Source: Minisyncoccota bacterium
GTDB lineage: Bacteria > Patescibacteriota > Minisyncoccia > Phycocordibacterales > UBA2100
Assembly (NCBI GenBank): GCA_965267345.1
Contig: OZ253947.1
Location: forward strand, 398,665 to 462,664
Length of the DNA stretch: 64,000 bases
Direction of reading: 5' to 3'
The position numbers were made by a program, and so were the translations under genes. The notes under the pieces are model-generated. The model worked only from the letters and a program-made list of their open reading frames with translations. It had not been told where the DNA came from and did no database searches. How positions within the stretch are numbered: position 1 is the stretch's first letter; every line of letters starts with the position of its first letter. This document shows, piece after piece, positions 16,729 through 25,276 of this stretch.

Positions 16729-16803
16729 CTGGTGCGCGATGCAAGAATTGAACTTGCGACCTCTTCGATGTCAACGAAGCGCTCTACCACTGAGCTAATC
16801 GCG
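16729..16803 (-). tRNA. tRNA-Val (anticodon GAC), CCA encoded
   Basis: Cloverleaf GCGCGAT.TA.GCTCAGTGGTAGAGC..CTTCG TTGACAT CGAAG..GGTCGCAAGTTCAATTCTTGC ATCGCGC A CCA. Confidence 0.88.
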
Positions 16804-16841
16804 CATGCGAGGGCGTATAGTAGCGTGACCCTTCCCCTACT

Positions 16842-17342
16842 TCAAGTGTGTTTTGGAGCAAAGTGTCGTCGGATGAGGTGTTGGATCCCGGCAATGACAA
16901 AGATCGCAACGATGTAGGCAATGAGGAGTGTGAGAAATGAGTACGGCGGTCGGTGCATCACACCAAGAATGGTCGCACCCCACCATGACGTAAATGACAC
17001 TGCGGCACCGAGCCACAGTGGCACCCAGCGTTTAGTAAGCGCAATGGCATTTGCCACAATAGCCACAAACATGATGTCTTTAACCTGAATTTTCGCACTG
17101 GTGATCACCCAGTCATTCCCCTGCGCCAGATGCCACCAGACGAGTGCGAGCCCTGAGAGAATGATGAGCGCCATACCCACGCGAATGGTCGTGTAGTTTG
17201 CGTGCATGAGCGCACGCTCGCTCGAGTCCACCTTGCCGTCGCGCAGTGCCTGAATAATCTGCACTTCGGCAATGGTAGCTCCTCCAACACCGAGAATAGT
17301 GCCGGCAATATGTCCGAATACCAGTAGTGTGTGTAGGTCCAT
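16842..17342 (-). CDS. Hypothetical polytopic membrane protein
   Basis: About four predicted TM helices. I chose the start at MDLHTLLVFGHIAG; the ORF extends to 17453. GC is lower than in core genes. Confidence 0.45.
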   Translation of the reverse strand: MDLHTLLVFGHIAGTILGVGGATIAEVQIIQALRDGKVDSSERALMHANYTTIRVGMALIILSGLALVWWHLAQGNDWVITSAKIQVKDIMFVAIVANAIALTKRWVPLWLGAAVSFTSWWGATILGVMHRPPYSFLTLLIAYIVAIFVIAGIQHLIRRHFAPKHT

Positions 17343-17418
17343 ACGGATATTGTACACGGTTATGACAACACCACGCGTGCCAGTGTGCATTACTGTTTTG
17401 AGTTGATATACTCGCACT

Positions 17419-18270
17419 ATGCGCGAATCATTATCGAAATCGTACGATACCATAGGTGAGAAAATCGATGAGAAACTGGCAACACTGCCTCCTGAAATTG
17501 CGGAACAATGGGAGCAGAAGCATGGCCATCTCCCCGCCCAAGAACAGCTCGACGATTTATCACTTTTTTTGCAACGGCGCCAAAATGCACTACGTCACGA
17601 ACACTCCATCAACCAGAAGCCTGAACGCATCGAAACGCTCCACCTCCAGCCTCTGGCGATCGCACAGGTACTCAAAAATATCGAGCAAGGTGACTACGCA
17701 GAACTCGGTGCTGGGCGTGCTGGGCGTGTTATCGCATCGGTGCGTCAACCTGATGTATGCTATAAAATAATGTTCCCGACGGACAGGACGCCACCGGAGA
17801 CAAACGAAATTGGAAAAGAAACCGATCTACAGGATACAATCAGTGAACTCGGTGAGATGCACGGAACTCGTGTACCGAAAGTCTTCTACTTCATCAAAGA
17901 TGGAGACACGCGCGCAATTGCAATGGAACGACTTGACGCAGTACCGCTTCAGGCAGCCCTTGACGGCACTGAAGCGTTTCCTGAGACGTTCGACCCCGAA
18001 CTATTTCTACAGGCACTCTCGCGCTACATTCGCGCACTGAATGAAAAAGGCTTTTATCATCGAGACCTACATGCAGGGAACATTATGATCGACAATGAAA
18101 CGGGTATGCCACGTGTTATTGATTTCGGCTCTGCCACGTTTACTCAGTTTCCAGACGAAGCGTATAGAAAGCGTGTCGTGAAAGGTGGACAAGAAGTAAA
18201 TATTGTGTTAAAATCCGACGTCAGAAGTCTTGAGCTTTTGCAGAACAAAATCCGTAAACGGTTTGAGTAA
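17419..18270 (+). CDS. Atypical eukaryotic-like protein kinase-fold protein
   Basis: Gly-rich loop ELGAGRAGRVIA, beta3 Lys in VCYKIMF, catalytic loop YHRDLHAGNIMID and a DFG motif (VIDFGSA). ~46% GC. Confidence 0.6.
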   Translation: MRESLSKSYDTIGEKIDEKLATLPPEIAEQWEQKHGHLPAQEQLDDLSLFLQRRQNALRHEHSINQKPERIETLHLQPLAIAQVLKNIEQGDYAELGAGRAGRVIASVRQPDVCYKIMFPTDRTPPETNEIGKETDLQDTISELGEMHGTRVPKVFYFIKDGDTRAIAMERLDAVPLQAALDGTEAFPETFDPELFLQALSRYIRALNEKGFYHRDLHAGNIMIDNETGMPRVIDFGSATFTQFPDEAYRKRVVKGGQEVNIVLKSDVRSLELLQNKIRKRFE

Positions 18271-18289
18271 CTAACAGGAGTGCGTCGTC

Positions 18290-18508
18290 ATGGAAATGAC
18301 CAAAACGTTTCTGAAAAAAGCCAAGAAAGCATGCCGCGAGCTGAGCGAAGATCGGCTCCACGTTCCTCTGGAGGACATGGGCGGCTACTTTGTTGCAAAG
18401 AAAAAGACTTCTCTTCCCGAAGGAGCGAACATCATCGCAGAGGAACATGATAATGGCGAAAGCATTGTTATTTACTACTGCGATGAGTGCCCGAACGGGA
18501 CCGACTAA
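18290..18508 (+). CDS. Small hypothetical protein (72 aa), apparently co-transcribed with the kinase-like gene
   Basis: AGGAG lies 9 nt upstream of the ATG. A strong terminator follows. Confidence 0.45.
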   Translation: MEMTKTFLKKAKKACRELSEDRLHVPLEDMGGYFVAKKKTSLPEGANIIAEEHDNGESIVIYYCDECPNGTD

Positions 18509-18512
18509 TATA

Positions 18513-18547
18513 GCGAGCAGATTCCCCCGACTCTGCTCGCTTTTTTA
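18513..18547 (+). terminator. Rho-independent terminator after the kinase/small-ORF pair
   Basis: gcgagcaga ttcccccgac tctgctcgc followed by ttttttat. Confidence 0.65.
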
Positions 18548-18767
18548 TATCTTTGCAAAACGCGTCACTTCCTCCCCATCTACCATCACCATGCGCGAAA
18601 GCGCACCGGTGCACTTACGCGCGAAGAAGTTTCTGAATGTGATGATCAACGGAAGCGACCTCGAACATCCCACCACGACACATTGATAGCACTTATCGCT
18701 GAGCAGCCCGACCATCAGGACGATGCAGAATCATCCAGTCGACGCAAATGATGATAAAGTCCTCAGC

Positions 18768-20687
18768 TTACTGAGTATTTAGTTCTTGCTGAGCGTCTGG
18801 CCAACCCATTTCCGCAAGAAATCGAGACCGCCTCTTTTGCCAACCGCGATAGTCTTTTGCCGTCGATAGAACAAGATGCTGCTTGCAGCGCGTAATGGCT
18901 ACAAAGCAATTCCGGCGCTCTTCCTCCATCTCGGGTGAAGCATCTCCCTTCTTGACGCTCTGCCAGGACGGCATTTCATCTTCCGCTAATCCAACAAGGT
19001 AGACTGTATCGAATTCGAGCCCCTTGGACGAGTGGACGGTCAAGAGGCTGACGGCATCTGGATCTTTAGGAGGTTCTTTTGAACGCAGTGCCAATCCTTG
19101 TACGACCTCCGCCAAATCGGGATTTGGCCCGATTTCCGATCGAATTTCCCGAAGACAAGCGTCCCATGCTCGCTGGTCTTCCACGACGTCGCTCACCGTA
19201 CCATCCTCGATAACCTCAGTTTTCAATAAGAACGGGATGGCCCGTTTGATCACATCGCTCCATCTGCTTCTTGAGTCGATTAACTCGTGAGTAAATTGCG
19301 CAAGATGCTGTGGCGTTGATTCCGGCTCATGTCCAACGACCTCACTCCAATGCTCCAAGAAGCTTTGGCTCGAAGCCTCAGACTCGGCAATCAAAATGGT
19401 TGGATCGAGCTCCATGTCCGCGAAGCGGTTGGCGGCATTCACTAGCGTTGTGAAGACTCTTTTGTTTCGAGGCCGAACAGCTTGATCGAGACAGGACTGA
19501 AGCCACACGAATTGAGGTGACGCAAAGCTATCGCGCCGCTGTGCTATTGCGGCCTTTACGCCTTTGGCCTTCAGCGCGGTGAGTACCGGTTCAAGCAGCG
19601 CCCGGGTTCGGCCGATTACGGCAATTTCTCCATGATCTTCGGCAGAGACTTTAGATATTTCCGTAGCAACAAATTCGCTTTCGTCAGTGCTGTTCTCAAA
19701 TTCGTGGAAGAATATTGTGTCAGGTGCGGCTTCTCGAGTCGGCACAATTTTCTTCTTGTCGGGTGTGCGCTGAGTATTGTGGGAGACAAGGCGGTTAGCG
19801 ATGGAAACAACCTCAGCTGGGCAGCGACGATTTTCCACAAGTTGAATCAGCTCCGGCTTAAAATCATCACGGAACCGCTCAATCTGACGGTAGCTCGCTC
19901 CCGCCCACTGAAAAATTATTTGATCGTCATCAGCGACACACATGACGTTGGAGAATTCCGCGCCTGTCATGTAGTGAAGAAGCCAATACTGGGCTCTCGT
20001 CGTGTCCTGAAATTCGTCAACCATCCAATAGGGATATGTACGGCGGATGCGCTTCGCCACCGCCGGCACCTGGGCAAGTAGCCGGCAGGTCTCCAAAATC
20101 AAGCCGTTAAAATCGAGTGCGTTCTCGGCGCGTAAAGCTTCCTCATACAGTTTGTAGACAGCGGGCATGCGTGGGTTTCGTATGTGTTTGGCCGCTTTAT
20201 CCGGGACTACCAACCGTGCCTTCATTTCATCGATAGCGCGAAGAAAGTGGATGTCCTCAGCGACAAAGTCGCTCCCACTCGCCGCGGCTGCCTCAAGCGC
20301 ATCAGCGAGCAGTGCCTCTCGCTCACGCTCAAGATCGAAAATCCCGAAGTCAGGTTCAATACCGATGTGGGAGCCATGTTGCCGCAAAATTTGAGTGCAA
20401 AAAGCGTGAAATGTTCCAATGAACGTGCGGTCGTCTACGGAACCTGGAACCATTTGTTCCACACGTTCGGCCATTTCGGCGGCAGCTTTCGTCGTGAACG
20501 TAAGCGCGAGGACACGAAAACGCTTTTGTGGAGATTCTTCCAGAAGGCGCGCAAGCCTGGTCGTTAATACACGCGTCTTGCCGGATCCTGGTCCAGCCAA
20601 AACGAGAGCAGCGCCATCGCGCCACATAACGGCTTCGCGCTGGATGTCGCTTAGGCTATCGATTGCATCTTGAAATTCGCTGCTCAT
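18768..20687 (-). CDS. gajB: UvrD/PcrA/Rep-like superfamily-1 DNA helicase (Gabija GajB-like)
   Basis: Motif I AGPGSGKT, motif Ia TFTTKAAAEM, motif II YWMVDEFQDTT, motif VI VHSSKGLEFDTVYLVG. The start overlaps the stop of the upstream OLD-family gene by 4 nt (ATGA). Confidence 0.7.
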   Translation of the reverse strand: MSSEFQDAIDSLSDIQREAVMWRDGAALVLAGPGSGKTRVLTTRLARLLEESPQKRFRVLALTFTTKAAAEMAERVEQMVPGSVDDRTFIGTFHAFCTQILRQHGSHIGIEPDFGIFDLEREREALLADALEAAAASGSDFVAEDIHFLRAIDEMKARLVVPDKAAKHIRNPRMPAVYKLYEEALRAENALDFNGLILETCRLLAQVPAVAKRIRRTYPYWMVDEFQDTTRAQYWLLHYMTGAEFSNVMCVADDDQIIFQWAGASYRQIERFRDDFKPELIQLVENRRCPAEVVSIANRLVSHNTQRTPDKKKIVPTREAAPDTIFFHEFENSTDESEFVATEISKVSAEDHGEIAVIGRTRALLEPVLTALKAKGVKAAIAQRRDSFASPQFVWLQSCLDQAVRPRNKRVFTTLVNAANRFADMELDPTILIAESEASSQSFLEHWSEVVGHEPESTPQHLAQFTHELIDSRSRWSDVIKRAIPFLLKTEVIEDGTVSDVVEDQRAWDACLREIRSEIGPNPDLAEVVQGLALRSKEPPKDPDAVSLLTVHSSKGLEFDTVYLVGLAEDEMPSWQSVKKGDASPEMEEERRNCFVAITRCKQHLVLSTAKDYRGWQKRRSRFLAEMGWPDAQQELNTQ

Positions 20688-22603
20688 GACCCTCTTGTTT
20701 TGAGCCGTTCGATCAAGTCCACGAAAGGCTTCGGCATTTGAGCGGCGAGCTTTGCATCCGCTGCAACCATAGGAGCGAGCTCTGTCATGTAAGCCACCTT
20801 TCTATTTTTCAGGTGGCGCTTGAGCGTATCCAAGTCACACGATTTTGCCGAAGACCCGATGAGATCACAGAGTATGTCACGGAGGAGAGCTTCATGACCG
20901 TCTGCGATGAGTTGCTCCTCCAAATTGTGTGGCGGCGTAAGTGAGGTAACTCGCTCATCGACCTCTGCTTGTGTGAAGCCCCGCTTCACTATCTGCTTAC
21001 AAAATCTCGCACCTTCATCGTCACCATCGACAATCATGTCCCAAGGAATTTCGAAAGCATCCGCGAGAGCTGCATAGATGGCCGGGCTACCGTTGTTCTG
21101 AAAATCAATGACAGCGACGCCGTGCTGATCGAGATCGTATCCCAGGGCCATACCCAATGCATGAAGAAGTAGGTAGTCAGACTGGCCCTCCGCCAATACC
21201 CAGCGACGAGCAAAAAAGATCTCTCCCCGCATACGACGCCCCAGTAAGGCAAGGTCAGCCTCATCCTCCTTCGATATAAGCAACCGACATTCATGTCGAA
21301 ATTCAGCAACAACCTTTTCCATACTGCTGGCGGATGTCGTGGATTTCCAACAGGCTGCCAAATCGGCGGCGAATTTCTCATCGAACCAAAGCGTAGCTGA
21401 CACGGTCCCTGATTTTTCGTCCTTCTTGATCCAATCCAACCGGCGACCAGCTACCAGGTTCTTTACTTCCTCCGTCCACGGAAGATCAGAAACAACGCGT
21501 CGCTTCAGCTTGCTCACTGAAGTGGAACCGTCCACAAATCGTACGTATCGAAGATTGTGTAGCGGTACATTCTGCACAAAATAGGGAGAATGCGTGGTGG
21601 CAATCGACTGTCCCGGTAGCTCACATATGCGTCTCCAGAGCGTGCGTGCTGCCTGTGGGTGCAAGTGAACCTCTGGCTCTTCAATTGCAAAAATTGGCTC
21701 GGCACCCTCAGGAAGGTCACTTGCCAACGCCTGCGCAATTGCCGCCTGAAATAGAAAAATCACCGCTAAGCTTTGGAGACCTTGTCCATGGTGATCGAGC
21801 GGCAGCCACGGATGAAGCTCTTCATTTCGGAGAACCAGACCGGCGCGAGAGAGAAGATCCCACAAATTCAGAGGTAGCATACGGAGTCGTGCCGTGCCGG
21901 GTTTGTCTCCTGATGCTATTTCCGTCGCACGGCCGATCGTCTCCGCAATCTCAGCAAATCGCTTATCAGAGCTAAGAAGCTTCTCATCAAGCTCATCAAG
22001 TTTCTCTTTGACTTCCATCTCTAGTGCTGGGGGCACATTCATCGATTTGAGCAGCCCACCCCAGTAGCGAGATCGTGCAGTGAATTCCGCATCGGCGTCC
22101 CGCAAGGCACCAAGCCAGTAGAAAAGTACGTAGTTGTAGAAGCCAGAAAGATTGATGGAGCGCCGTCTCACCCCCATCGGCTTGCCATCTGGATTCAGAA
22201 ACTCCCACGCCGGCTTGAATGCTTCGTCATCCGGATCCCAGGAGTAGGAGATTGCTATGGCTACCTGGTTCAACCCGTCGGTTGTGAGCGTCACGATGTC
22301 ATCCAGATCTGCGACCATGTCCTCAGGCCACTCATCTGGCTCGGTCTCTTCAAAGACAATTTCTATTCGGGATCCTGGGGCAGAGCGAGGGTCATGCTTC
22401 TTCGGATCCGCTATGTGAATGTCATCTTCGGTGAAGCCTGTACCGCGTTGGCCCCATCGACGAGACAACGCGATTCTGAGCGCCTCCAAAATTGCTGACT
22501 TCCCGGAGTTATTCGCCCCAATTAAAACAGTCGTATCGTCCAACTCGAGGGTGAGTTGGGCGATCGATCGGAAATTCTCAATGTGTAACCGTCGGATCTT
22601 CAT
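20684..22603 (-). CDS. gajA: OLD-family ATP-dependent endonuclease: ABC-type ATPase plus C-terminal TOPRIM (Gabija GajA-like, class 2 OLD)
   Basis: Walker A GANNSGKS, ABC-like signature IFAIEEPEVHLHP, TOPRIM Glu in VLAEGQSDY and DxD in IVDGDDEG. 639 aa. Partnered with the UvrD helicase downstream. Confidence 0.72.
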   Translation of the reverse strand: MKIRRLHIENFRSIAQLTLELDDTTVLIGANNSGKSAILEALRIALSRRWGQRGTGFTEDDIHIADPKKHDPRSAPGSRIEIVFEETEPDEWPEDMVADLDDIVTLTTDGLNQVAIAISYSWDPDDEAFKPAWEFLNPDGKPMGVRRRSINLSGFYNYVLFYWLGALRDADAEFTARSRYWGGLLKSMNVPPALEMEVKEKLDELDEKLLSSDKRFAEIAETIGRATEIASGDKPGTARLRMLPLNLWDLLSRAGLVLRNEELHPWLPLDHHGQGLQSLAVIFLFQAAIAQALASDLPEGAEPIFAIEEPEVHLHPQAARTLWRRICELPGQSIATTHSPYFVQNVPLHNLRYVRFVDGSTSVSKLKRRVVSDLPWTEEVKNLVAGRRLDWIKKDEKSGTVSATLWFDEKFAADLAACWKSTTSASSMEKVVAEFRHECRLLISKEDEADLALLGRRMRGEIFFARRWVLAEGQSDYLLLHALGMALGYDLDQHGVAVIDFQNNGSPAIYAALADAFEIPWDMIVDGDDEGARFCKQIVKRGFTQAEVDERVTSLTPPHNLEEQLIADGHEALLRDILCDLIGSSAKSCDLDTLKRHLKNRKVAYMTELAPMVAADAKLAAQMPKPFVDLIERLKTRGS

Positions 22604-22614
22604 GCGTCACGCTC

Positions 22615-22935
22615 ATGCAAAGGAGCGAGAATTCATTGTATCATGAGCATGCAGATCAAATGCGTACAAACAAATCGAAATACGATATTACGGGAGCTGC
22701 AAATAAGCGCTTGCCGGACCGCAATCCGGAGTTCCCGTTCATACGGGAGCTGTGCGCCCATCTCTCAGAGGAAGAAATCCAAGAGGCCAATGAGAGCTTC
22801 TGGCGTTACACCGAGATCGTACGGGGCATCTTTGACCGCCAGGAACGCGATCGGAAATTTGCTCAGGATGCGGCCGAAATACGGCCGGACGAGGTAGATG
22901 AAGAAGCCTCGAACCATAGTGGCGAATTTTCGTGA
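22615..22935 (+). CDS. Hypothetical small acidic protein, divergent from the Gabija-like operon. Start uncertain; possibly the internal Met at ~22660.
   Basis: The ORF track gives 106 aa. No recognisable motifs. Ends 13 nt before a perfect 10-bp stem-loop. Confidence 0.3.
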   Translation: MQRSENSLYHEHADQMRTNKSKYDITGAANKRLPDRNPEFPFIRELCAHLSEEEIQEANESFWRYTEIVRGIFDRQERDRKFAQDAAEIRPDEVDEEASNHSGEFS

Positions 22936-22948
22936 TCGCAGAACGTAA

Positions 22949-22972
22949 CAGAGCGCTCAATAGAGCGCTCTG
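22949..22972. other. Perfect 10-bp-stem palindrome cagagcgctc-aata-gagcgctctg between the small ORF and tRNA-Glu
   Basis: Read from the sequence. No T-tract follows. Candidate terminator or processing hairpin at the island edge. Confidence 0.5.
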
Positions 22973-23009
22973 GTGCGTCAAGGCACAAAAACTTGATGGA
23001 TTTAATGGC

Positions 23010-23084
23010 TGGTGACCCTACGGGGAATCGAACCCCGATTTCCACCGTGAAAGGGTGGCGTCCTAGCCGTTAGACGATAGGGCC
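23010..23084 (-). tRNA. tRNA-Glu (anticodon TTC), CCA encoded
   Basis: Revcomp GGCCCTA TC GTCTAACGGCTAGGAC GCCACC CTTTCAC GGTGG AAATC GGGGTTCGATTCCCC GTAGGGTC ACCA. Confidence 0.88.
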
Positions 23085-23150
23085 GTACGTGCGGCGCTAC
23101 TATACCGCACTTTTTGGGCATGGGCAAAAAAGTATGCTACCGTTTGTCGC

Positions 23151-23234
23151 GGAGGGTTGCCCGGAATTGGTAACGGACCGCACTCGAAATGCGGCGCGCG
23201 CAAGCGCTTGTGGGTTCGAGTCCCATGCCCTCCG
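23151..23234 (+). tRNA. tRNA-Ser (anticodon CGA), class II with a long variable arm
   Basis: GGAGGGT TG CCCGGAATTGGTAACGGAC CGCA CTCGAAA TGCG, variable arm GCGCGCGCAAGCGCTTG, T-arm TGGGTTCGAGTCCCA, acceptor GCCCTCC G. Closely resembles E. coli serU. Confidence 0.85.
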
Positions 23235-23361
23235 CTCGTTTGTACGTAACTATCTACACGTCCATACCTGCGATTCGAAAAGATGTTTTACTGCACGAGG
23301 ACCGCCCTTACGCAAACCTCTGATACAAGGTCGGTCCTTGTTCTGCTTGCAGGGTGTTTCG

Positions 23362-23387
23362 TACCTACTGAGATATCTCAGTAGGTA
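23362..23387. promoter_or_regulatory. 26-bp perfect palindrome (tacctactgagat|atctcagtaggta) just upstream of a TGTTATACT extended -10 in front of tsaD
   Basis: Perfect dyad symmetry, read from the sequence. Located 25 nt upstream of TGtTATACT at 23412-23420. Confidence 0.4.
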
Positions 23388-23458
23388 TACCAAAGTTAAT
23401 TCAAAAGTTGATGTTATACTACCCTCGCCATGACGTCTGTGCTACCGTACATCGGTAT

Positions 23459-24631
23459 ATGGCAACGATACTAGCGGTTGAGACATCGTGTGACGAGACA
23501 GGCATTGCGATTATTGACACTGAACGCACTGACGAACAAGTGCGCGTGCACGTGCGTGCCGATGCACTGCTCTCACAGGCGGTGCTGCACGCCGAATACG
23601 GCGGTGTGTATCCCACACTCGCCAAACGAGAACACGCAAAAAATCTCGGACCACTCTTCACTGACGCACTGACAAAAGCAGGCCTCTTCATTCCTGCGCA
23701 GGAGTCGATCATGTCACAAGAGAAAATTGGAGAGATTAAAGAATTACTTGAGCGCGAGCCTGAACTATTCGTACACCTTGCCGTACTCCTTGCGAAGCTC
23801 GAAAAGCCACCAATTGACGCCGTCGCGGTCACGAATGGCCCCGGGCTGGAACCAGCACTATGGGTTGGTATCAATTTTGCGCGAGCACTGGGTACCGTGT
23901 GGGATATTCCCGTCGTACCCATCAACCACATGGAAGGGCACATTATCGCGGCCGTTGCCGAGCCGGTAAACGAAACAGAATTCACCATTTCACACCCCAC
24001 CTTCCCTGCCCTAGCACTGCTTATCTCAGGCGGCCACACCGAATTGGTGCTCATGCGCTCGTGGCTTTCATATGAGCGGATTGGCAGTACACGCGATGAC
24101 GCGGCGGGTGAGGCATTTGATAAATCGGCACGACTCATCGGCTTGCCGTACCCTGGTGGTCCGGAAATATCGAAGCTCGCAGAAGCAGCGCGCGCCGAAG
24201 GTCTTGAGCAGCCATTTTCACTTCCACGGCCCATGATCGCCACCAACGACTGTGACTTCTCGTTCTCAGGACTGAAGACGGCTGTCCGTACACTGGTTAC
24301 TGAGGCTGGCACCCTTGATGAAACACAAAAGAAGCAGTTTGCACGTGAACTGGAAGATGCGATTAGCGATGTCTTGGTTGCCAAAACACGCCGTGCAATT
24401 GAAACCTACGGTGTCGCATCACTAATCGTCAGCGGTGGTGTATCGGCAAATACCCACATTCGTACGCAACTTGCCGCTCTCGCTGAAGAATATAACGCAA
24501 CGCTCTTCCTTCCCTCGCCCGACTTGGCAACTGACAATGGGCGCATGATTGCCTTTGCGGCATCAATTCACGACGCTGACTCAGCGCGCGAAAAAGATAT
24601 TCGTGCTGAGGGAAATCTACAACTAGCGTAA
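23459..24631 (+). CDS. tsaD: tRNA N6-adenosine threonylcarbamoyltransferase TsaD (Kae1/YgjD family)
   Basis: MATILAVETSCDETGIAIID, HMEGHI and GGVSANT motifs. The ORF extends upstream to 23408, but the conserved N-terminus begins at 23459. Confidence 0.85.
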   Translation: MATILAVETSCDETGIAIIDTERTDEQVRVHVRADALLSQAVLHAEYGGVYPTLAKREHAKNLGPLFTDALTKAGLFIPAQESIMSQEKIGEIKELLEREPELFVHLAVLLAKLEKPPIDAVAVTNGPGLEPALWVGINFARALGTVWDIPVVPINHMEGHIIAAVAEPVNETEFTISHPTFPALALLISGGHTELVLMRSWLSYERIGSTRDDAAGEAFDKSARLIGLPYPGGPEISKLAEAARAEGLEQPFSLPRPMIATNDCDFSFSGLKTAVRTLVTEAGTLDETQKKQFARELEDAISDVLVAKTRRAIETYGVASLIVSGGVSANTHIRTQLAALAEEYNATLFLPSPDLATDNGRMIAFAASIHDADSAREKDIRAEGNLQLA

Positions 24632-25276
24632 CGCCTGTCGCAGCACAGTGAGAGTTTCCTGCGCCGTCGTATCACGCACGGCGGCTGCAGGAATGCTGAT
24701 ATGCGCAAGTTGGCGATACTGTGCGAGACGGTCTTCCAGTAGGCGCGGGTAACACCGACGCAGTGCCTGCTCTTCCGATTCCCCCGCTTCCAGCGTGAAG
24801 TAGCCACACCACGCAACCGGTTTTGGCTTTTCAAGAAATGCTTCGACGAGCCCGTCGAGTGACTCATCCCCCACATCCAAGTGCACGATAAGGCAGTTGT
24901 CGTGAAGGATGCGCAGTGTTCGCGGCTCGAGGTGTACCACACTACCGGTCGTATCGAATACCAGATTTTTGCCGTTGGTTTGCATCGAAGCGTGACGCGT
25001 AAACTCATTTTCTAATTCTAAGTACCGCGCTTCGCGTTCTGCGTACGTCGGCGTGTCAGGGTAGCCGAGCCACGCAGAAATATCGGCCATATCGTCAAAG
25101 CCGAGCTCGTGCTGTATCTCACCATCAACGTGGTACCACAAAAAATCCTCCGCATCGCGGAGTACTTTTGAGCGAAAACTCTTACCGGCATTCGACATGC
25201 CGATGAATGAGAGCCGGAACGTACCGGCGGCAATATGTGCATCAAATTCTTCCGGTTTTAGTTGTACCGACTGCAT
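24623..25276 (-). CDS. P-loop NTPase / nucleoside(-tide) kinase-like protein (AAA_33-like)
   Basis: Walker A FIGMSNAGKS. 217 aa. Divergent from valS. Confidence 0.4.
   Translation of the reverse strand: MQSVQLKPEEFDAHIAAGTFRLSFIGMSNAGKSFRSKVLRDAEDFLWYHVDGEIQHELGFDDMADISAWLGYPDTPTYAEREARYLELENEFTRHASMQTNGKNLVFDTTGSVVHLEPRTLRILHDNCLIVHLDVGDESLDGLVEAFLEKPKPVAWCGYFTLEAGESEEQALRRCYPRLLEDRLAQYRQLAHISIPAAAVRDTTAQETLTVLRQALR

Follow-up and report, generated by a model that had tools for sequence, protein, structure and literature searches.

This analysis concerns a 64,000-nucleotide stretch of contig OZ253947.1 from a Minisyncoccota bacterium (the whole stretch is called the window here) and, within it, the interval that runs from a tRNA-Val gene to a divergent tRNA-Glu/tRNA-Ser pair. 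The interval holds a minimal eukaryotic protein kinase (ePK)-like kinase with a small open reading frame (ORF) directly behind it, a two-gene Gabija defence cassette on the opposite strand, a membrane protein gene (mem203) and a short acidic ORF (orf106); a gene for TsaD, the transferase of N6-threonylcarbamoyladenosine (t6A) formation, lies just beyond it (Table 1). A first-pass annotation of the same DNA had read 16729-23234 as one genomic island of lowered guanine-plus-cytosine content (GC) between tRNA genes. ARAGORN and Rfam recover all three bracketing tRNAs, with the earlier coordinates shifted by one base, and the Rfam scan of the window returned nothing besides tRNAs. The tRNA-Glu and tRNA-Ser genes are separated by a 66-nt spacer, which measures 55 to ~430 nt in relatives.

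Table 1. Features of the tRNA-bracketed interval and its right-hand neighbour (window coordinates; dG, folding free energy)
Feature	Position	Strand	Evidence and remarks
tRNA-Val(GAC)	16730-16804	-	ARAGORN and Rfam (74 bits); left anchor of the syntenic block
mem203, 203-aa multi-pass membrane protein	16842-17453	-	ORF and translation; between tRNA-Val and kinase
283-aa minimal ePK-like kinase	17419-18270	+	Pfam Pkinase, E 6.4e-13
72-aa partner protein	18290-18508	+	19 nt past the kinase; AGGAG 9 nt ahead of ATG
Intrinsic terminator	18512-18547	+	AGCGAGCAGA-N10-TCTGCTCGCT and T run; 10-bp stem
Inserted segment (spacer, gajB, gajA, orf106)	18549-23009	.	Operon terminator to tRNA-Glu 3' end; absent in L056, L001 and L008
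GajB, UvrD-type helicase	18768-20687	-	PADLOC 2.9e-240; Pfam UvrD-helicase and UvrD_C
GajA, ABC-ATPase and OLD-TOPRIM nuclease	20684-22603	-	PADLOC 2.4e-231; Pfam AAA_15 and OLD-like_TOPRIM
orf106, 106-aa acidic ORF	22615-22935	+	Divergent from gajA; status uncertain
Perfect 10-bp-stem palindrome, no T tract	22949-22972	.	CAGAGCGCTC aata GAGCGCTCTG; dG -25.5, z -5.9; in the gap between orf106 and tRNA-Glu
tRNA-Glu(TTC)	23010-23084	-	ARAGORN and Rfam
tRNA-Ser(CGA)	23151-23235	+	ARAGORN and Rfam; divergent from tRNA-Glu
TsaD, bacterial-type t6A transferase	23408-24631	+	Pfam TsaD 1.3e-76; right-hand syntenic neighbour

A probable resident operon and a probable insertion

Three relatives share the locus of the window, namely L056, L001 (a Saccharibacteria metagenome-assembled genome, MAG) and L008 (a Patescibacteria MAG). 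Gene order in L056 runs YbeY, FtsA, FtsZ, TrxB, an ORF, tRNA-Val(GAC), the kinase, a 69-aa ORF, a terminator, tRNA-Ser(CGA) and tRNA-Glu(TTC), with tRNA-Ser beginning 38 nt past the small-ORF stop codon. L001 carries tRNA-Val, the kinase, a 71-aa ORF, tRNA-Ser, tRNA-Glu, ~1.25 kb of small ORFs, TsaD and the valyl-tRNA synthetase ValRS, while L008 has tRNA-Val, TsaC, the kinase, a 69-aa ORF, tRNA-Ser and tRNA-Glu. Across these three genomes, the gap between the small ORF and the tRNA-Ser/tRNA-Glu pair spans 38-250 nt. Alignment by blastn reveals collinearity on both sides, through FtsA-FtsZ-TrxB on the left and through TsaD, ValRS and the next two genes on the right.

Sequence divergence follows the same pattern as gene order. 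The kinase is 53% identical to its counterpart in L056, 50% in L001 and 42% in L008, and these values track those of the flanking housekeeping genes: FtsZ is 76% identical in L056 and 60% in L008, TrxB 72% and 57%, and TsaD and ValRS reach 57% and 50%. Since the kinase and the small ORF lie between the same tRNAs in three relatives and diverge in step with their neighbours, they appear to be resident genes that were inherited vertically. The first-pass annotation had treated them as island cargo, and had itself named the same gene content between these tRNAs in related genomes as grounds for abandoning the idea; all three relatives carry the pair there without Gabija.

What the relatives lack is the segment that reaches from the operon terminator to the tRNA-Glu 3' end. 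Homologues of GajA, GajB, orf106 and mem203 were found in none of the fetched loci, including L056, L001 and L008, and the slot downstream of tRNA-Glu is filled with unrelated small ORFs in L001 and with pyrimidine-synthesis genes in L008. The description of a segment that sits at a tRNA 3' end and is absent from relatives therefore fits Gabija and orf106, not the kinase pair. As had been reported, the 3' end of tRNA-Glu faces the inserted genes and no direct repeat flanks them. The island idea accordingly stands in part: a foreign insertion at tRNA-Glu agrees with a site that is empty or otherwise filled in relatives, whereas 16729-23234 does not hold together as one unit.

The tRNA-Glu/tRNA-Ser unit is inverted relative to L056, L001 and L008, with 23010-23235 aligning by blastn to L056 7157-6944 in reverse. 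In the simplest history, gajA-gajB, possibly together with orf106, would have been acquired horizontally into a variable slot at the tRNA-Glu 3' end, first by insertion downstream of the tRNA gene and then by inversion of the segment made up of tRNA-Ser, tRNA-Glu and the cargo. Insertion into an already inverted tRNA copy would be an alternative order of events. No integrase ORF was found in the interval, and the attachment-site (att) repeats of a tRNA-targeted island were not seen either: the repeats, direct or inverted, that bracket the interval or Gabija are chance-level matches of 12-27 nt, and the best flanking inverted-repeat pair has one arm within the gajA coding sequence. The interval is probably a mosaic, in which a vertically inherited two-part housekeeping kinase operon of Patescibacteria and a horizontally acquired Gabija cassette became adjacent by accident.

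The slot on the left of the operon varies as well. Between tRNA-Val and the kinase there are 64-80 nt in L001 and L056, TsaC in L008 and L059, and mem203 in the window, so that on this comparison the slots on either side of the kinase operon are variable and the operon is constant. mem203 matches no family in Pfam, NCBIfam, PADLOC or PHROG and appears to be lineage-specific. Its annotated 5' end and the start of the kinase gene, on opposite strands, share 35 nt, so that translation probably begins at an internal Met near residue 38.

Base composition does not set the interval apart. The window has a GC content of 52.8%, all of its 2-kb bins fall between 50 and 56%, and its 60 ORF-defined genes average 53.3 +/- 1.8%. 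The tRNA-bracketed interval stands at 51.7%, against 53.8% in the left 10 kb and 52.2% in the right 10 kb. The drop claimed against flanks of 58-60% is therefore not found, as the flanks lie at 52-54% and none reaches 58-60%. GajA (52.5%) and GajB (52.8%) are genome-typical (z -0.3 to -0.4 vs window genes) and lack the atypical composition expected of a tRNA-targeted island. Low GC is limited to the kinase (48.5%, z -2.6) and the 72-aa ORF (48.4%), and two further window genes are about equally low (48.5% and 49.7%). As an island argument GC points the wrong way, with the inserted Gabija typical and the conserved kinase low, and the GC/codon test for an island was rejected for want of a flank contrast and because the composition of Gabija is typical.

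The Gabija genes form a canonical two-gene system that is unusual only in its Patescibacteria-like host and its tRNA-Glu slot. The PADLOC match of GajA spans residues 1-635 of 639, the domains of GajA are those of the family, and gajB is adjacent on the same strand with a 4-nt overlap. The closest GajA relatives are 71% identical and lie in non-syntenic defence islands; one of them adjoins a transposase fragment. More distant ones, at 54-61%, occur in Uhrbacteria, other Patescibacteria, Pedobacter and Acidiphilium, a spread which suggests that the cassette moves widely. On these comparisons, Gabija here appears to be ordinary, foreign and unrelated to the kinase pair.

The nearest GajA/GajB relative (L051 1976-12297, 71% at the amino acid level) sits in a defence-island-like stretch. 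Also encoded there are an S24 peptidase and a tyrosine integrase, a 605-aa protein (weak match to TIR_2) with a 518-aa unknown behind it, a fragment of a methyltransferase, and a DDE transposase. The L051 genome encodes sulfite oxidase and cytochrome c and, from this content, is not Patescibacteria-like. Nucleotide similarity between the two loci is confined to gajAB (18888-22603, 66.6%). orf106 lies outside this shared segment and is therefore not part of the conserved cassette; it is absent from L051 and all other loci, and matches no family in Pfam, PADLOC, NCBIfam or PHROG and no plasmid. The divergent acidic ORF and the perfect palindrome that had been noted at the tRNA-Glu edge are both present as described.

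The kinase and its small partner

The kinase scores 49.1 bits against Pfam PF00069 (cutoff 31.7). The motifs quoted for it in the first pass, LGAGRAGRV, VCYK, HRDLHAGNIMID and DFG, are all found and are conserved in homologues. Its catalytic residues comprise the glycine-rich loop (G-loop) at aa 96-104, K116, E134, H214-R-D216, N221 and D235-F-G237. Across 18 homologues, K116, E134, H214, D216, N221 and DFG are invariant, and G97 and G99 are invariant or nearly so. With these, its ATP-binding and phosphotransfer residues are complete.

Structurally, the kinase departs from the classical form. An AlphaFold2 (AF2) model (predicted local distance difference test score, pLDDT, 84.9) has three N-terminal helices at aa 4-64 and a core at aa ~79-283, which ends ~45 residues past DFG in a beta-hairpin and one helix. 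Compared with Hanks-type kinases (PF00069, e.g. PknB), only a core of ~190-200 residues is present; neither the model nor the alignment contains an activation segment, an APE motif or helices alphaF-alphaI, and the full bilobal fold is thus lacking. In the catalytic loop, HRDLHxGN, a His replaces the usual Lys. The kinase also differs from Hanks-type enzymes in adding the N-terminal three-helix extension and a dedicated partner of 70-90 aa, either downstream or fused.

Comparison with other known systems places the kinase in none of them. A profile search of PDB sequences gave generic kinase matches only (e.g. PknB, 5e-11), and NCBIfam scores are far below threshold (UbiB 1.9e-6; arch_bud32 1.4e-5). 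The kinase fails the Bud32 family model and Bud32 is not among its top structural matches; unlike in the Bud32/KEOPS system, the small partner is unrelated to Cgi121 and the neighbouring transferase is a bacterial TsaD, not Kae1. RIO kinases are equally poor relatives, with PF01163 at 16.9 bits against a cutoff of 22 and a different, three-helix N-terminal extension here. Identity as Bud32 or RIO was rejected, since both models stay below cutoff and the fold search is non-specific. In contrast to the effector kinases OspG, NleH and HopBF1, to which similarity is sub-threshold, this is a chromosomal core gene of free-living or episymbiotic Patescibacteria with no secretion context. Defence kinases (PD-T4-6, Mad6, Mokosh MkoA, BREX PglW and Stk2) have the catalytic core in common with it and give weak PADLOC matches, but it is without their accessory domains and without co-occurring defence genes in other loci. 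No defence-kinase model matches over its full length, the best covering aa ~77-253 of longer or different profiles at 32-40 bits.

The family to which the kinase belongs is large. A word-indexed homologue search found 18 relatives, whereas an exhaustive hidden Markov model (HMM) search recovered 478 clusters (50% identity) at E<=1e-30 and 1768 at E<=1e-10, so rarity judged from the word-indexed search alone would be misleading. Nearly all of the 150 best HMM matches are 200-330 aa long, and relatives occur among Saccharibacteria and Patescibacteria MAGs. The family loci compared here come from the word-indexed relatives and, beyond these, from scans of genomes and metagenomes. The N-terminal extensions of longer members contain no Pfam domains. 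As far as sequence can tell, these short kinases, whose C-lobe is truncated, make up a family that is sizeable, distinct and unnamed. In the literature, no paper was found that ties Patescibacteria to Bud32-like or minimal kinases.

The 72-aa ORF lies 19 nt downstream of the kinase, with its own Shine-Dalgarno sequence and a strong terminator, just as the first-pass annotation had it. The terminator (dG -18.5, z -6.5) closes the kinase/small-ORF operon, and an equivalent one follows the small ORF of L056. Pairing extends well beyond the shared locus: a same-strand ORF of 68-94 aa begins at -4 to +121 nt from the kinase stop in 20 of the ~23 distinct family loci with enough downstream sequence, and in L001, L008, L016 and L059 the small ORF overlaps the kinase gene by 4 nt. 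By HMM these small ORFs form one family, with an N-terminal helix (F..A..A...L) and strands ending in an aromatic-x-hydrophobic-Gly/Cys hairpin; the 72-aa protein itself has one helix and a four-stranded sheet. A word-indexed search with the small protein returned only the query sequences, and a fold search found no recognisable relative and no similarity to Cgi121, Pcc1 or Gon7.

In some members, kinase and small protein are a single polypeptide. Among the 150 best representatives, the C-terminal tails of P0199, P0258, P0275 and P0266 correspond to the small protein, and each of the four beats 1000/1000 composition-matched shuffles on the small-protein HMM. At the DNA level the fused P0258 gene (L057 2603-3586) reads through without an internal stop, and no separate small ORF comes after it; a Saccharibacteria MAG (L012, 3293-4288) encodes a 331-aa kinase of fused length with no small ORF downstream. 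A search for informative fusions to extra domains was given up when the C-terminal extensions proved to be the small protein itself.

Two further observations concern the layout of the pair. The fused form of the kinase (327-331 aa; L012, L057) lies between tRNA-Arg(TCT) and tRNA-Val(TAC), followed by an RluA-type pseudouridine synthase and L19, once more among tRNA and translation genes. L004 (8001-8861) and L027 (7194-7883) have no recognisable small ORF despite downstream room, as the kinase is followed by ~600 nt of non-coding sequence in L004 and by an implausible 97-aa ORF in L027. Loss, a frameshift or a very divergent partner could account for these two cases.

Two genes that are fused in some lineages and translationally coupled in others are a classic sign of a physical complex. 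From this combination we infer that the kinase and the small protein would associate physically and make up one two-part enzyme, in which the small protein would be a detachable C-terminal domain. Kinase, 72-aa ORF and terminator most likely form an old, lineage-wide operon. The large part of the enzyme is a minimal Hanks/ePK-like kinase that lacks both the activation segment and the half of the C-lobe which binds substrate. The small part, an alpha/beta protein produced in step with the kinase, would dock on the truncated C-lobe and supply or gate substrate binding or activity. The minimal kinases Bud32 and OspG need a bound partner, and the proposed dependence would resemble theirs. Such a module would most likely serve housekeeping regulation, acting either as a protein kinase or as an ATPase switch connected with translation or with tRNA functions, and it is not likely to serve phage defence.

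Gene neighbourhoods and competing readings

Elsewhere in the family, the kinase keeps housekeeping company. The neighbourhoods of ~25 other loci are of this kind, and no GajA or GajB and no defence island was found at any of them, with PADLOC run on part of the neighbours. Nearby genes include the S19-L22-S3 ribosomal operon in L054; NusB, RNase III and an aminoacyl-tRNA synthetase in L055; PolA, TsaE and the aspartyl-tRNA synthetase AspRS in L002; NrdR and NrdD in L004; RluA and L19 in L057; and HU, RNase Y and ClpP in Paceibacterota loci. tRNA-Val(GAC) adjoins the module not only in the window but also in L001, L008, L056, L025, L020, L023 and L059. TsaD and/or TsaC lie 0-4 kb from the kinase in ~8 of ~19 informative loci; tRNA-Val is linked to the same extent, and many loci are without a t6A gene. 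In a Magasanikbacteria MAG (L053 5976-7786), the kinase pair has genes for KaiB and fragmented KaiC-like ATPases upstream of it in divergent orientation.

Several points weigh against a mosaic of resident kinase operon and acquired Gabija. The GC of the kinase and the 72-aa ORF, the lowest of the neighbourhood, could hint at a foreign origin of the pair, and PADLOC gives weak kinase matches to mad6 (6.5e-11), PD-T4-6 (1.3e-8) and MkoA, alongside a PHROG kinase match (7.5e-8). The insertion of Gabija is deduced from relatives with only 42-53% identity, there being no att repeats, integrase or scars, and the relatives may have lost Gabija instead of the window having gained it. With no fold relative for the small protein, its proposed role is drawn from gene order and fusions.

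The first two of these points are also what a defence reading would build on, in which the kinase and small ORF act as a sensor or effector, either with Gabija or as a stand-alone abortive-infection or toxin-antitoxin module. The small-ORF stop lies only 260 nt from the gajB stop, and a small ORF after an enzyme gene is superficially toxin-antitoxin-like. Yet the two transcription units converge with a strong terminator between them, three relatives have the pair at this tRNA-bracketed site but no Gabija, and GajA/GajB are found at 0 of ~25 family loci. The closest Gabija relatives, in turn, have no such kinase nearby. The PADLOC matches are confined to the universal catalytic core (aa ~138-253) and are weaker than that to Pfam Pkinase, divergence fits vertical descent, and natural fusions would be unexpected for a toxin and its antitoxin. 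The suggestion that the pair is a Gabija companion or a defence module in its own right finds no footing in these housekeeping loci and is largely refuted by the empty sites of the relatives, and we consider it extremely unlikely.

An effector-type function is very improbable as well. On this account the module would be a minimal kinase of the OspG, NleH or HopBF1 kind, used on a host cell, with the small protein as chaperone or activator. Patescibacteria are typically episymbionts, which would suit such a use, and Pfam OspG_kinase gives a weak match (4.5e-4). However, no signal peptide and no secretion-system neighbourhood was seen, and generic cellular kinases match better than effectors. 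The family is also broadly conserved at a core syntenic locus and is not confined to one host-associated clade.

A role in t6A formation is attractive because linkage to t6A genes recurs in distant branches of the kinase tree. Under this proposal the kinase and small protein would be a t6A accessory and a functional analogue of Bud32/KEOPS, convergent or very distant, acting as an ATP-driven switch on TsaD/TsaC; the module would possibly dock on a lineage-specific ~50-aa insertion in TsaD, which the TsaD of the window carries. TsaC lies directly upstream on the same strand with gaps of 12-13 nt in L008/L014, L015 and L059; in L025 it is the adjacent gene, in divergent orientation. TsaD is 1-4 kb away in the window (0.9 kb when Gabija is discounted), L001, L020, L022/23, L025 and L059, and TsaE lies 3.4 kb upstream in L002/3. 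On the kinase tree the linked loci belong to separate deep branches, with identities of 30-45%. A minimal C-lobe with a small partner recalls Bud32, and arch_bud32 is the second-best of the weak NCBIfam matches. No paper linking the kinase module to t6A was found in the literature.

Other evidence tells against a t6A function. The Bud32 model TIGR03724 reaches 24.7 bits against a cutoff of 125, and the small protein is unlike the KEOPS subunits named above. The TsaD of the window is of the bacterial type and exceeds the TIGR03723 cutoff (344 bits vs 296), and TsaE is kept in at least one genome with the module (L002/3). The module is linked just as persistently to tRNA-Val(GAC), a tRNA that is no substrate of t6A formation, so the association with t6A genes may be inherited old synteny and not function. 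Many members, including those of Paceibacterota and Magasanikbacteria and those in L054, L055 and L057, have no t6A gene nearby. Overall, we judge a t6A role to be rather unlikely, and prefer a housekeeping kinase operon that lies next to an unrelated Gabija insertion.

The right-hand edge of the block offers a few further observations. The annotated TTG start of TsaD is probably too early, and the ATG at ~23459 (MATILAVETS) the true one. TsaD proteins of the window, L001 (3367-4587), L020 (10668-11837) and L025 (4860-6050) are 389-407 aa long, compared with profiles of ~314 aa, and align to TsaD models in two stretches, indicating an insertion of ~45-60 aa after profile position ~60; in the window TsaD it corresponds to about residues 76-128. 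Directly upstream of TsaD, a perfect loopless palindrome of 13+13 bp (TACCTACTGAGAT/ATCTCAGTAGGTA) at 23362-23387 could be an operator or a terminator-like element. The gene of a 217-aa P-loop protein (24623-25276, minus strand) separates TsaD from ValRS, overlapping the end of each. The protein has weak shikimate- or homoserine-kinase-like matches only and no counterpart in L001, where ValRS directly follows TsaD; it looks like a further lineage-specific insertion in the same block.

Implications for the kinase family and for Patescibacteria

As regards the locus itself, the kinase should be treated neither as a Gabija accessory nor as a new defence gene. The only defence system there is an ordinary Gabija cassette at a tRNA-Glu hotspot. 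Gabija is a known system, and the minimal kinase, whether split or fused, represents an undescribed form of a known enzyme class. As a by-product, the analysis brings to light hundreds of 50%-identity clusters of unnamed minimal kinases in Patescibacteria, each with, or fused to, a partner of ~70 aa.

The genomes of Patescibacteria are reduced, most of their conserved genes are essential, and to our knowledge very little signalling machinery is known in them. A kinase split so that its C-terminal module is a separate polypeptide would, if true, be an unusual architecture. The interest of the module would rise further if the t6A link proves true. Its recurring position by TsaC, TsaD and tRNA genes provides a concrete, testable lead to its function.

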